From: a phage
DNA: 64,000 nucleotides
Assembly (NCBI GenBank): GCA_031520405.1
Contig: GCA_031520405.1_4842.1
Strand: one strand, 5' to 3'
Position numbers and translations under genes: made by a program. Positions 20,116 to 42,110 of this stretch are shown here, one piece after another; positions within the stretch are counted from its first letter, which is position 1, and every line of letters begins with the position of its first letter. Below the pieces are notes generated by a model, which saw only the letters and a program-made list of their open reading frames with translations, made no database searches and was not told the DNA's origin.

Positions 20116-20142
20116 ATAATACCCTATCCCCATTTATTGAAG
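20116..20142 (-). promoter_or_regulatory. box-hairpin module: TTCAATAAA-N11-TATTAT with -10 in hairpin loop
   Basis: minus-sense TTCAATAAA, 11 nt, TATTAT; arms ggggatag/ctatcccc; U-tract follows. Confidence 0.45.
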
Positions 20143-20147
20143 AACTA

Positions 20148-20570
20148 TTAGTCTTCCGAACCTACAACCCCACCACGCAGATCCTGTGCTGGCTTACCAT
20201 CAGGTGCCATGACATAGATGGTATTGATAGTCTCAAACCAAGACAATAAATCAACTCCTTCGGTGTATGGCGTTACCGGAACAGAAGTTTTGATTTCTTT
20301 CTGTTCATCCTTCAAATCCGGATGACTTCCCGATAGGGTTAACCAAGCGAATCTTCCATTGGGATAAATAATGCCTTCTTTGAACATTACAATCTTTTTG
20401 CGAGGATTATTGGCTTCACCCAGGCACACCACCAGATGATGGATCATTTCGGGGCGCGTCAACAACGTGTCGTCACGGATAATGCCCTGCTTGACAGCAG
20501 AGATTACCACTTCATCCAGCAACGCCTGTTGCTGTTCCAGCTTCAGGGATTCAGTGAGTTTCACGCTCAT
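20148..20570 (-). CDS. hypothetical protein
   Basis: 140-aa ORF. Confidence 0.4.
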   Translation of the reverse strand: MSVKLTESLKLEQQQALLDEVVISAVKQGIIRDDTLLTRPEMIHHLVVCLGEANNPRKKIVMFKEGIIYPNGRFAWLTLSGSHPDLKDEQKEIKTSVPVTPYTEGVDLLSWFETINTIYVMAPDGKPAQDLRGGVVGSED

Positions 20571-20574
20571 GATA

Positions 20575-20772
20575 TCAGCCTTTTAAGTTAAGAATTTCAC
20601 CAAGGACAGCGTGCAAATGCTTTGCAGATTCAATGTCCAACAGAATGGTGTCATAAAGACGCCCGTTGTCATCACTCCCAACCTGCTTTATCACCACTCC
20701 CCTGGGGTCTAAGCTCACCAAAGTTTCCTTGGCAGGCGTCGTGTACACAGAGCTAAATTTATCAGTGGGCAT
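20575..20772 (-). CDS. hypothetical protein
   Basis: 65-aa ORF. Confidence 0.3.
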   Translation of the reverse strand: MPTDKFSSVYTTPAKETLVSLDPRGVVIKQVGSDDNGRLYDTILLDIESAKHLHAVLGEILNLKG

Positions 20773-20821
20773 AACAGAACCTTACTCGGTTTGGTTAGCT
20801 CCAGTTGGAGCTAACTGTGAA

Positions 20822-21391
20822 TTAGCCTTTAAAGCTGATCGGTTTCTGAACCCCGGCGTCGAAAGCAGCCTGGGTACGAGTATCGCTCACCACCTGACAG
20901 GTCTTGTCAAGATCGATGCGCGGGTATCCAAACACGCCAGCAATCAACGAACCAGGGAACTGGCCAAGTTTAGTTTCATAGATCGCACATGCGTCCAATT
21001 TTTTAGTTTGGCTAATGCGGAATTCATCCCGACCTGAGCTGATAACAACCTGAATCTCTTTGTACAAAGATGAATCAAACTGAATATTCTGTTCCTGAAT
21101 CCATTGCATTACTGCTTTAGAACCGTCTGCGCCATAACGGCCTTGGAAAGTATCTTTGATCACTTCCTTCAAACCGTTTTTGTACATGTCAGGAATCTGC
21201 GCCGTCTCCTGAACTTTGAGCGTGTAGTTGCTCAGGTGGTTTTCAGAATCTTTGTTGAACTTTTTGACCTGTTGTTCAATGCGGTTGAATTCATTGAAAT
21301 AGCTAACCACACTACCAATCCCAATTACAGCAAATGCTAGAATCGCCAACCCAACGATCCAACCAATTGAAATACCTTTACGTTGTGACAT
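20822..21391 (-). CDS. LemA-like membrane protein
   Basis: N-terminal TM helix; C-terminal block YETKLGQFPGSLIAGVFGY resembles LemA family. Confidence 0.45.
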   Translation of the reverse strand: MSQRKGISIGWIVGLAILAFAVIGIGSVVSYFNEFNRIEQQVKKFNKDSENHLSNYTLKVQETAQIPDMYKNGLKEVIKDTFQGRYGADGSKAVMQWIQEQNIQFDSSLYKEIQVVISSGRDEFRISQTKKLDACAIYETKLGQFPGSLIAGVFGYPRIDLDKTCQVVSDTRTQAAFDAGVQKPISFKG

Positions 21392-21406
21392 CTTTACTTC
21401 CTCTTG

Positions 21407-22516
21407 TTAAAACAAACGTTTATAAGTTCGACCATTGTACTGCATGCGGCCTAATATGAAAACTGCGGTAAAAGGGATACATCCAAACAGCACGACGATA
21501 ATCACTTCCCAAGTTTTAAGATCTCGCCATTTCAGATATTCCATTTCCTTCATCTCAACTCGGTTGTATCCCTTACTGATATTGACCGCAACTTCTTGGA
21601 ACACGGATATACCCATTGGTTTCCCAGTCAATGAAAGTCCGTTACGAGAATGGAGTTCCATGTTGTTCATGCCGTCGGCAAATGACGTAGACTTACCCCA
21701 ATTAATTTTCATATCCTTTGAAATATCGGTGACTACAATAACATCGTTCTTTTTACCGCCGGACCATGCATATAGAAGTCCCTGAAAATATTCAACAGGC
21801 TGGCCAGAAGTCACAACCCAAACGATATTAACCTGACGTGAAGCACCTAATGTTTTCAGAGTGTCGTTCAGATAATCATTCCAGTAATCAACAGGAATGT
21901 CCATCCCTGACATATTCAGAACACGGGTTACTCGGTAATAATCATACACCCTTGGATATGAAGGGATATGCTCTTTGAAATTCTCAGCGAATTGCTGGTC
22001 AGATTTAGAGAATAATGAATCTTTGTTGCCCAGCACATAATTCATATATGAATGTTCACGTGCCGCAGGTTCCCCGATTTTAACTTGTGCCCAACGCGGA
22101 GGCTCTGTAGTACCCTGACGATCAATACGGTCAATGCTCAGATCACCGACGGTTGTTAATACGTCCCAATCAACGTCATAAGAGTGCTCATAGCATGTGC
22201 TGCAATGACGCGTTTGTGTACAAGATCGGTTATTTCCTGAACCAGAGCAAGATGTTGTGTAATAGCACATACATTCATAAGAATGTTCACAACCCACCTT
22301 ATTCCGTTGCTTATCAGTTACATATCCATTCAAAATTTCCACGTCCCCAGAACTACCAAGGGAGAAAGCAGCATATAATCCCGACTGGATAAGGCAAGAC
22401 AATACGATAACAATGGCCGTGGCGATCAAAGTCTCCTTTGGCTCATGAGTCTTGCGGTGATATATCACAAACAAGATGGCCAAAATTACAGGAACCACAA
22501 ACAGAAGGTAAATCAT
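21407..22516 (-). CDS. Cys-rich integral membrane protein
   Basis: 369 aa; hydrophobic segments at both ends; Cys-rich stretch CEHSYECMCYYTTSC. Confidence 0.45.
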   Translation of the reverse strand: MIYLLFVVPVILAILFVIYHRKTHEPKETLIATAIVIVLSCLIQSGLYAAFSLGSSGDVEILNGYVTDKQRNKVGCEHSYECMCYYTTSCSGSGNNRSCTQTRHCSTCYEHSYDVDWDVLTTVGDLSIDRIDRQGTTEPPRWAQVKIGEPAAREHSYMNYVLGNKDSLFSKSDQQFAENFKEHIPSYPRVYDYYRVTRVLNMSGMDIPVDYWNDYLNDTLKTLGASRQVNIVWVVTSGQPVEYFQGLLYAWSGGKKNDVIVVTDISKDMKINWGKSTSFADGMNNMELHSRNGLSLTGKPMGISVFQEVAVNISKGYNRVEMKEMEYLKWRDLKTWEVIIVVLFGCIPFTAVFILGRMQYNGRTYKRLF

Positions 22517-40210: not shown

Positions 40211-40240
40211 TGGAGCCGTTTTAGGGAGTCGAACCCAAAT
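40211..40240 (-). other. tRNA-like 3' fragment (T-arm plus acceptor strand plus CCA) without recognisable 5' half
   Basis: minus-sense GGGTTCGACTCCC followed by acceptor-like strand and CCA; no canonical D or anticodon arm. Confidence 0.3.
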
Positions 40241-40338
40241 GCTTGGCCAGCGCTGACCTTACATCCCATCTGACTTAGGCAACCCACCTCTGCTTACTCA
40301 GGAGCTTATCCCCTTTGGACAGTCAGATATAACGGCTT

Positions 40339-40366
40339 TGGGATTGGAGGAAGGACTCGAACCTTC
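40339..40366 (-). other. tRNA-like 3' fragment (T-arm plus acceptor strand plus CCA)
   Basis: minus-sense GAAGG-TTCGAGT-CCTTC then CTCCAAT-C-CCA; upstream part does not fold as tRNA. Confidence 0.3.
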
Positions 40367-40750
40367 TCATGTACGCTCCTGATTTCTCAGAAGTAGTCTG
40401 CTCCCATCGACCTATTAAGTACACGCTCCGCTCATTGTCGGCGGGAGATTATTAATCACACCCTCCCGCCTATTTTAGTGCGCCGAATTTTGTTATGAGG
40501 AATCGGAAGACCTCACTGGTGTATGGCTATTAAGCTACTGCCAGGAACGTGTTATCATTAGCGATTATTTTTGTGGTCAGTTTCTAAAAACCCGCAAAGT
40601 CACGCACAACGAAAACGAAAACCTGTTTGAGTCCTAAACCTACCTGTCTTGGTCTCACATCGCTATGAGTGGCCAGGACTCAAACAGCTTGCCGTTCAGT
40701 GAGTTAACTATACTTTGTAACCCGTTATTGATAAAACCTTTTATTTTGTT

Positions 40751-40776
40751 GGCGAGGGTGCGGAATCGAACCACAC
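40751..40776 (-). other. tRNA-like T-arm fragment
   Basis: minus-sense TGTGG-TTCGATT-CCGCA with acceptor-like CCCTCGC; no complete tRNA. Confidence 0.25.
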
Positions 40777-41478
40777 TTCTGAGCGCTACCCCGTGTCACC
40801 AATGCACCACCTCACCATCGATTTGCCGGAACTTACGCATCCGGCCTCGTCCTGTCGGTGTTCTTCTGAATCCGGGAAGATCAGCAGGAACTATGAATCA
40901 AGTTAATTCAACCAACAGGAATCCTCTTGTTGCCCTTTGACGCAACATTATGAACCCTCTATGAAGACTCATAATGTTGTCGGCGTGATGGAGATTAGCG
41001 CCCCCGACCTCCCCTTATATGTTGGTGTCGACTTGCCAACAGGGTGCTCTCTGATTCTGAGCTAATCACGCTACAACAGGGAGTTTCGTTCTCCGACGGT
41101 CAAGTGCGTCCACTGACACCAGCGAGGTGGCTATTACGCCTCTATTCACACAAGCCCCTGAGACTAGGGGTTAACTGGTTTTGGGCTGCAAACCCGACTC
41201 CCACTGTGTTATTTCCCTCATGTTTAATACTTTACCGCAGCCCAGCTAATTTGAAAAGTCCTCTCCCCTTTGAGCTACACTGCCCACAGCAGTGCGGACG
41301 AACCTTCACTCAAAACCGGATGCGCCGAAGTGGGCAACTGTTTACCGGACTGATCGGGTAGACCCAGGAGAGAGCAGGTAATCCCGATCAGGAGGATGAG
41401 GAGTAACATCATGTAAAACATAGTGTTCCCTCCCTTCCATGCAACTAACTTTACTACAATTATTTATTGAATAAAGCG

Positions 41479-42048
41479 TTATTTTAACACTTCTAACTTC
41501 ACAACACGACGCAGAAGGTAAACATATTCGCCAGCAGCTTCATGCGTCATATAATGGGTAGAAGGTGTGGAATGATTGTTCTGGGTTTCTTTTAATCCAA
41601 CACGTTCTGCCCAACCATTAATAGAGTTCCCATAGAAACCGATAATCGCGCCAAAATAAATGCGCTGGCTTTCTGGCTCTAAAACATAGTTGACAGTGAA
41701 GCAAATATCAGAACGAATAGACTCCAGTTTCATACCAACACGACCTTCGGAGAATTCGTTACGAACATATAAATGACGGAAACGATCGCGCCGCGCTTGT
41801 GATGATTCTTCCAATTCTTGTCGGAGTGAAGAAGTTACGTCAATATTAAATGAAAATGTTGGATTCTGTAAATCGGAACGGGCCAACTCTAACGCAGATT
41901 CAACAACGCGACGGAAATTGATACTTTTACCTGTCAGGCGTTTCACTTCATCTGTGATTGTTCCAAAAGGGATTTTCGTGGCGCGTTCCCCTTCGTATTT
42001 TGCCAATAAAGGAATAATGTGTTTCATGATTGCTGTGTTAATGTGCAT
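41479..42048 (-). CDS. hypothetical protein
   Basis: 189-aa ORF; box-hairpin promoter module upstream. Confidence 0.45.
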   Translation of the reverse strand: MHINTAIMKHIIPLLAKYEGERATKIPFGTITDEVKRLTGKSINFRRVVESALELARSDLQNPTFSFNIDVTSSLRQELEESSQARRDRFRHLYVRNEFSEGRVGMKLESIRSDICFTVNYVLEPESQRIYFGAIIGFYGNSINGWAERVGLKETQNNHSTPSTHYMTHEAAGEYVYLLRRVVKLEVLK

Positions 42049-42084
42049 TCCGGAGCCTCACCGAATTGATTAAATGTCTCCATT

Positions 42085-42110
42085 ATTATATTGGAGATAC
42101 GTTTATTGAA
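42085..42110 (-). promoter_or_regulatory. box-hairpin module: TTCAATAAA-N11-TATAAT
   Basis: arms ctcca/tggag with TATAAT in loop, about 40 nt upstream of ATG 42048. Confidence 0.45.

Follow-up and report, generated by a model that had tools for sequence, protein, structure and literature searches.

In a 64,000-nucleotide stretch of phage DNA (contig GCA_031520405.1_4842.1 of the GenBank assembly GCA_031520405.1; the whole stretch is called the window below) we analysed a short intergenic element, in which a 9-bp box, TTCAATAAA, is followed after 11 nt by a hexamer of the -10 type, and the hexamer can lie in the loop of a hairpin. We think it probable, with a likelihood of roughly 0.6, that these sites are composite promoter-terminator cassettes specific to Ackermannviridae, i.e. 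promoters without a -35 element, which carry a box characteristic of the family. This interpretation was derived from the sequences of the window and of related phages. The window comes from a Kuttervirus, a CBA120/ViI-like member of Ackermannviridae: bases 20000-28000 are 96-99% identical to the Kuttervirus phages SeHz-1, SJ3, PhaxI and CBA120.

The box and its two spacings

The initial annotation had described four copies of the element on the minus strand. All four are present where it placed them, they are intergenic and run in the sense of the flanking genes (4/4), and the distance between box and hexamer is exactly 11 nt in each, as it is in a fifth copy (38901), which the annotation did not contain. 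Sites with 11-nt spacing and without a -35 element are called class M. The five copies, referred to below by the first coordinate of the box-hexamer segment, are listed here with the open reading frames (ORFs) around them.

20094-20141, minus strand: class M module C; box 20133-20141, 11-nt spacer, TATTAT 20116-20121 (20116-20141 reads TTCAATAAA tggggataggg TATTAT), hairpin 20104-20131, T tract from 20103; between ORF 20148-20570 and ORF 19721-20086
23322-23373, minus strand: class M module B; box 23365-23373, TATTAT 23348-23353 (23348-23373 reads TTCAATAAA ggggaatgggt TATTAT), hairpin 23332-23367, T tract CTTTTTG; between ORF 23393-23560 and ORF 23120-23311
27945-27989, minus strand: class M module A; box 27981-27989, TATAAT 27964-27969 (27964-27989 reads TTCAATAAA ccaaaggggga TATAAT), hairpin AGGGGGA/TCCCCCT 27957-27976, weak T tract; immediately past the DNA polymerase stop codon (27990), ahead of ORF 27585-27929
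42077-42110, minus strand: class M site at the divergent junction; box 42102-42110, TATAAT 42085-42090 (42085-42110 reads TTCAATAAA cgtatctccaa TATAAT), weak inverted repeat TCTCCA/TGGAGA 42077-42097; upstream of ORF 41479-42048
38901-38926, minus strand: fifth exact match; box 38918-38926, TATGAT 38901-38906, without a hairpin (z +2.1); directly past tRNA-Met

The composite TTCAATAAA-N11-TATNAT has five exact matches in the window, all on the minus strand, compared with 0.00 in 100 dinucleotide shuffles, thus chance can be excluded as its origin. The 9-mer TTCAATAAA alone occurs nine times (1.3 copies expected), and at every site examined in the window, in CBA120 and in phage 3M the box conforms to TTCAATAA[A/C]. 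The hexamers are TATAAT, TATTAT or TATGAT. That a canonical -35 is missing at 17 bp, as the initial annotation had it, is true for most of the sites: no match to TTGACA in at least 4/6 positions was found at 16-18 bp, the exception being site 27964, which has a 4-of-6 match, TTGATT, at 18 bp. At site 38901 the TATGAT overlaps the ATG of ORF 38705-38902; this site is identical in CBA120, and is not present at the equivalent place in phage 3M.

The annotation also expected the motif to be enriched in intergenic regions genome-wide, and the search bore this out strongly, both in CBA120 and in the distant Serratia phage 3M (Miltonvirus). In an unbiased count of 8-mers TTCAATAA was the most frequent intergenic word of CBA120, with 29 of its 44 copies falling in the 8.7% of the genome that is intergenic, and it likewise headed the intergenic 8-mers of 3M (29 of 41 copies intergenic). 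Relaxed matches to the composite motif behaved in the same way: 20 of 42 lay in the intergenic 8.7% of CBA120 (19 matches in all in the shuffled genome) and 22 of 37 in the intergenic 6% of 3M (six in all after shuffling). Nearly all intergenic copies of TTCAATAA in CBA120 point in the sense of transcription, and those with the N11 spacing stand about 45-60 nt ahead of a start codon. An exact scan of IMG/VR for TTCAATAAA-N11-TATAAT was set aside as uninformative, it returned at least 120 single matches scattered over unrelated contigs, which corresponds to the chance level.

The histogram of the distances between the box and the -10 has only two peaks in CBA120 and 3M, one at N11 (nine sites in CBA120, eight in 3M) and another at N5-6 (four and eight sites, respectively). 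The sites of the second peak, called class E, have the box inside the spacer of T4-early-like promoters of the form (G)TTTACT-16/17-TATAaT, usually with an inverted copy of the box, TTTATTGAA, upstream of the -35, and this layout recurs in CBA120 and 3M. The idea of one fixed module, put forward in the initial annotation, did not survive this comparison: the box is found also in class E spacers, as the inverted upstream copy and at places without any hairpin. The second architecture and the hairpin-free occurrences indicate that the box is an independent element rather than a part of a fixed module. Two further features of the window contain the box.

31893-31938, plus strand: class E promoter for ORFs 31988-33507; inverted box TTTATTGAA 31897-31905, -35 TTTACT 31911-31916, direct box TTCAATAAC 31919-31927 in the spacer, -10 TATACT 31933-31938 (TTTACT-16-TATACT)
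41463-41475, minus strand: palindromic box TTTATTCAATAAA; between ORF 41479-42048 and ORF 41275-41421; a cassette swap described below has its downstream breakpoint here

The box match at 31897-31905 has no class M -10, because it belongs to the plus-strand class E promoter. The box at 41463-41471 has no matching -10 either, there is only a weak candidate, TAAAGT, at N10.

Two side observations concern these promoters. Downstream of class E promoters there is a conserved leader, which ends in ...TGAA(A/G)(T/A)GAAGGAA(C/A)TACATCATG, promoter and leader together forming a repeated cassette; the leader was seen in the window at 31960-31990 (plus strand) and upstream of the CBA120 genes starting at 62021, 97413, 77294, 77853 and 49721. 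On the minus strand of the window, upstream of rIIA (18450-18556) and of ORF 5355-5579 (5580-5628), there are TCTATTGAA-N11-TAT(C/A)AT sites after or within a terminator hairpin. TCTATTGAA is one mismatch away from the inverted box TTTATTGAA, and these sites may represent a variant of the box module.

Hairpins and their conservation

It had been noted that the -10 sits in the loop of a GC-rich hairpin. In every one of the four hairpins of the window the hexamer is at the apex, and the description fits sites 20116, 23348 and 27964, but not 42085, where the hairpin is weak and its stem has a GC content of 50%. The RNA folds are stable at 20116 (-21.6 kcal/mol, z -5.4; 12 pairs followed by TTTTCATGGG in the terminator scan) and at 23348 (-26.5 kcal/mol, z -7.5; 16 pairs), moderate at 27964 (-14.1 kcal/mol, z -1.75), and amount to -6.3 kcal/mol (z -1.9) for the 6-bp stem TCTCCA/TGGAGA at 42085. 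In the minimum-energy folds of 20116 and 23348 the outer bases of the hexamer are paired as well, which leaves a loop of 4 nt. The inverted repeat of 42085 is missing from CBA120, which has TTCAATAAC-N11-TATAAT at this place. U tracts follow two of the copies, as reported, namely 20116 (TTTTC) and 23348 (TTTCTTTTT), and the tract downstream of 27964 is TGTTATCCCTTTG only. Thus the combination of a GC-rich hairpin and a U tract, which defines an intrinsic terminator, is complete at 20116 and 23348, partial at 27964 and absent at 42085 and 38901.

About 55 terminator candidates were found on the sense strand of CBA120, most of them with ttcg or gaaa tetraloops. The hairpins of the modules have loops of 4-9 nt with the hexamer at the apex, and only the modules keep larger apical loops with a TAnnnT hexamer. 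A nested hairpin of this kind was present at nine of the 20 intergenic composite sites in CBA120 and at nine of the 22 in 3M; tandem terminators occur at others.

The three modules downstream of the DNA polymerase gene occupy the same positions in Agtrevirus, Limestonevirus, Taipeivirus and Miltonvirus, and also in two more distant, unclassified relatives from IMG/VR, in which the C-terminus of the DNA polymerase is 64% identical. In at least five named genera and these two relatives the orthologous modules keep the box, the spacing and the -10, and the stems differ by compensatory changes. At site A (module A) all seven lineages have the box, a spacing of 10-13 nt and a hexamer (TATAAT, TATACT or GATAAT), while the stems are entirely different: GGGGGA/TCCCCC, CAGGGGGA/TCCCCTTG, GGGGGC/GCCCCC, GTGGGG/CCCCAC and GTGAGGC/GCCTCAC. 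This comparison of stems was made by folding each orthologue separately, without a formal count of pairs, the MAFFT alignment of site A being ungapped and out of structural register. New stems were seen also in the 3M orthologues of the CBA120 modules that follow the MazG gene, orf076 and the gp41 helicase gene. The stem of Taipeivirus contains two G-U pairs, which are possible in the sense RNA only and thus suggest a role at the RNA level, i.e. termination. In public records the hairpins, including the orthologues of 20116, are annotated as terminators in Mutine, ssTn and LIMEstone1, and the LIMEstone1 record has a "-10 signal, putative promoter" (TATTAT) within the terminator orthologous to site 20116.

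The box keeps its phase relative to the -10, not relative to the stem: its distance from the stem varies between 0 and 5 nt, while the distance from the hexamer stays within 10-13 nt. Moreover, in CBA120 (26048) and in 3M (83209 and the site upstream of rIIA) the box comes after a complete tetraloop terminator, in tandem with it; it is therefore part of the promoter, not of the terminator. No hairpin at all is present at several class M sites (CBA120 133395 and 85273; 3M 42764 and 63749).

When the CBA120 genes were mapped onto the window, its segment 18.5-42 kb corresponded to CBA120 133-157 kb in reverse complement. It contains a long minus-strand block, which leads from the divergent junction (~42.05-42.4 kb) to rIIA and includes tRNAs, the DNA polymerase gene (27990-30986) and some 20 small genes without a known function. 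Three tRNAs were all that an Rfam scan detected in 19-43 kb. Two segments of this block deserve mention in their own right. The 2.2-kb stretch between tRNA-Met and ORF 41275-41421 (39019-41274) has no mapped CBA120 gene; in CBA120 itself an HNH endonuclease gene and ~2 kb of DNA without annotation lie here. The ~250 bp at 20571-20821, which include a 65-amino-acid ORF (20575-20772), lie between the homologues of orf255 and orf254 and are an insertion relative to CBA120, because the two genes adjoin there.

Proposed mechanism and alternative explanations

In the model that we favour, a good sigma-70-type -10 and the 9-bp box at about -32 to -24 would constitute the promoter at the DNA level. 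The box would take the place of the missing -35, and it would most likely be read by a phage-encoded or host factor, which aids the binding of the host RNA polymerase. To our knowledge none of the consensus sequences for IHF, sigma-28, sigma-32, sigma-E and sigma-54 fits the combination of box and hexamer. At the RNA level transcripts reading through from upstream would fold the GC-rich inverted repeat that brackets the -10, and would stop where a U tract follows; this step is proposed from the anatomy of the hairpins, the covariation and the G-U pairs. Initiation is predicted some 7 nt downstream of the hexamer, within the 3' arm or immediately behind it; RNA begun there would not contain the 5' arm, therefore it could not terminate itself. 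Each downstream gene block would thus be insulated from read-through and expressed from its own promoter. As the box is found also in the spacer and upstream of TTTACT/-10 promoters, it is probably a promoter signature that holds for the family as a whole and comes in two geometries.

A more far-reaching version of this model can be put forward only tentatively, and we would not count on it. It holds that TTCAATAA is the site of an Ackermannviridae transcription factor, which, bound at -30, recruits the sigma-70 polymerase to -35-less promoters and also switches off early promoters, in which copies of the box stand on either side of the -35 and occupy the spacer, so that one protein and one box would time the early-to-middle switch, with the nested hairpins insulating the units. 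If it were true, the recruitment would correspond in function to the sigma appropriation of T4, but would have arisen without MotA and AsiA.

Several observations weigh against the promoter-terminator interpretation. No candidate for the factor that reads the box was found: Pfam and PHROGs searches with the "regulators" of CBA120 and the module-adjacent proteins of the window were uninformative (the matches were an HU homologue, a zinc ribbon and domains of unknown function only), and PDB sequence searches with two early-operon proteins gave no match. Neither T4 MotA nor AsiA had a counterpart among the six-frame ORFs of at least 40 amino acids of CBA120 and the window (phmmer --max, at the sequence level; best E-value 0.58), in agreement with Kutter 2011 (PMC3184105). 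The literature search found no mapped ends (5' or 3') of Ackermannviridae transcripts, no binding data and no expression kinetics. The TTGATT of site 27964 could be used as a -35, and it is doubtful that site 38901 is the promoter of ORF 38705-38902, which, as annotated, it cannot serve. Some nested hairpins lack a T tract (CBA120 31264 and 99426; 3M 130592 and 14690), thus the hairpin may have a role other than, or additional to, termination. Finally, a stable stem beside the melting region, as at 20116 and 23348, could hinder rather than help opening.

An alternative is that the sites are plain promoters of the host polymerase, used without a dedicated factor. The AT-rich box would then contact the polymerase as a proximal UP-like element or a degenerate -35, and the promoters would be active immediately after infection, with weak or moderate constitutive strength. 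The excellent -10 hexamers, the failure to find an activator gene, the TTGATT at 18 bp in site 27964 and the presence of the box inside promoters that already have a -35 are all compatible with such promoters. However, TTCAAT taken as the -35 would give a 14-bp spacer, whereas the usual -35/-10 spacer is 16-18 bp; a TGn extended -10 was found at none of the sites, and UP elements, normally at -40 to -60, occupy another position than the box. Moreover, the TTC and the spacing are strictly conserved across genera, which suggests specific recognition. We regard this explanation as unlikely, and still more so the one in which the box is the operator of a mainly repressing phage regulator, which shuts off early promoters and at the -30 position of class M is either activating or equally repressive. 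An operator would agree with the class E layout (TTTATTGAA upstream and TTCAATAA in the spacer) and with the existence of palindromic TTTATTCAATAAA sites without a promoter. In class M, however, there is a single, non-palindromic copy at a fixed distance from the -10 and no -35, a layout of activation and not of occlusion, and the searches identified no regulator.

Two further explanations we consider highly improbable. According to one of them the cassettes are mainly recombination sites, short conserved repeats which mediate gene-cassette swaps in the manner of the PeSL elements of T4-like phages, and regulation is secondary. PeSL-mediated shuffling is documented in T4-like phages (PMC2839356, PMC4122927), and the window contains one clear case of an apparent swap: ORF 41479-42048 is a divergent allele, 65-70% identical to CBA120 orf218, with both flanks about 100% identical, and in this region (41472-42150) the identity breaks at the TTCAATAA boxes 42102-42110 and 41463-41471. 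This suggests recombination at the boxes, as with PeSLs. It is, however, a single example, and most of the modules stand at conserved positions between conserved core genes across genera, which indicates regulatory constraint; the two roles are not exclusive. The other, hardly credible explanation is that the hairpins are terminators only, with the box as their upstream A tract (a bidirectional terminator) and with TATAAT-like loops that are merely AT-rich. It is true that the folds of 20116 and 23348 have the AAA of the box paired to the U tract, and that in the plus-strand scan 27957-27976 is called a terminator, with TTGGTTTATT after it. But this reading leaves unaccounted for the N11 sites without a hairpin, the boxes downstream of complete tetraloop terminators, the box-to-stem distance that varies when the box-to-hexamer distance does not, the tetraloops of the normal terminators of these phages and the retention of the hexamer when the stems change completely. 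The sequence has already largely refuted it.

Known promoters and promoter-terminator cassettes

The initial annotation suggested that the box substitutes for the -35 in the way of a MotA box. T4 middle promoters have the MotA box (a/t)(a/t)(a/t)TGCTTtA at 12 +/- 1 bp from the -10 (Hinton 2010, PMC2988021). Like them, the class M sites have a 9-bp box in place of the -35 and a stringent -10, with 11 nt here versus 12 +/- 1; this spacing is found at 5/5 sites of the window and is the main peak in CBA120 and 3M, and the -10 is excellent in the absence of a -35. The genes served are likewise pre-replicative or of unknown function, beside replication genes. TTCAATAAA, however, is unrelated to the MotA box and lacks its TGCTT core, and no MotA or AsiA homologue is detectable here, thus the class M sites are not T4 middle promoters despite the matching geometry. 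What stands of the suggestion is the geometry and the mostly missing -35, and the box may be where an activator stands in for the -35.

Class E promoters resemble the early promoters of T4 in their -35 ((G)TTTAC(T/A)), 16-17-bp spacer and TATAaT-like -10 (a T4 fragment has GTTTACA...TACTAT), but differ from them in carrying TTCAATAA in the spacer and an inverted copy upstream, which the T4 promoters examined do not have. The modules share with intrinsic terminators the GC-rich stem and the T tract at 20116 and 23348, annotated as such by others. They differ by their larger loops with a conserved -10 hexamer instead of ordinary tetraloops, and by the lack of a T tract after several of the nested hairpins.

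The possibility that the modules are late promoters was rejected, as motifs of the CTAAATA type are what structural genes carry. Among intergenic words the CTAAATA(C/T) family ranks second in enrichment (ACTAAATA, 9/10 copies intergenic; CTAAATAC, 9/11) and stands just upstream of structural genes, for example at 34478-34516, at 33993-34027 (minus strand), at ~42360-42380 (plus strand, upstream of the baseplate gene at 42412) and at many CBA120 sites. It is likely to be the late-promoter core of the family, differing from the T4 sequence TATAAATA; according to Kutter 2011 (PMC3184105) the late signal had not been identified. At 23561-23596 (minus strand) there is a T4-type TATAAATA and, behind it, a hairpin, ATATCCTC...GAGGATAT, pairing with the Shine-Dalgarno region of ORF 23393-23560. 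This element is conserved in Limestonevirus and Agtrevirus, and may be a late promoter with a translational hairpin.

The founding genome papers left the pre-replicative transcription of ViI-like phages unexplained: early promoters could not be found by informatics, and neither MotA/AsiA nor an equivalent was seen (Kutter 2011, PMC3184105; Anany 2011). One box, used in two promoter geometries, present in at least five named genera and the top intergenic word of two genomes, offers a concrete promoter code for the family. An activator, if there is one, would mean that the recognition of -35-less promoters has been solved a second time, independently. Knowledge of promoters and insulators has practical value too, as biocontrol with CBA120, ViI, LIMEstone and their relatives is practised or proposed, and so is their use as engineering chassis. 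Our literature search, which did not cover the 2012 Viunalikevirus genus paper, where a prior mention is possible, found no description of the box, the two geometries, the family-wide conservation or the missing known activator.

The proposal that the same sequence could be a terminator in RNA and a promoter in DNA is strengthened by the terminator annotations, by the -10 nested in the LIMEstone1 terminator and by the covariation of the stems. The idea itself is not new, as the terminator-promoter concept is already known from PeSL and PmSL, the cassettes of promoter and terminator described in T4-like phages (Arbiol et al. 2010, PMC2839356; Comeau et al. 2014, PMC4122927), to which, judged from their sequences, the modules are closest in kind. 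In phages phi1 and RB49 the stem-loop is mostly within the -35/-10 spacer or overlaps the -10, and for phi1 PeSLs with a stem-loop overlapping the -10 both promoter and terminator activity were shown (PMC2839356). PmSL of phage nt-1 is the middle-promoter version, with an upstream box for the -35 (PMC4122927). The modules described here have the same build: a short intergenic cassette, placed between one stop codon and the following ribosome-binding site, in which a predicted promoter is joined to an overlapping or adjacent GC-rich stem-loop with a G run and a C run, which would serve as terminator or attenuator, and in the one case described above the boxes bound an apparent gene-cassette replacement. 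PeSLs have a sigma-70-like -35/-10 pair and PmSLs a Mot box with a -10; class E sites have a -35 and a -10, and class M sites have no -35 and no Mot box, but a different box. The differences are that these cassettes belong to Ackermannviridae and not to Straboviridae, that they have TTCAATAA instead of TTGACA, TTTACW or the TGCTT Mot box and no MotA/AsiA, and that the hairpin is centred on the -10. Furthermore, many of the modules have conserved core genes on both sides; they are not confined to hyperplastic regions.

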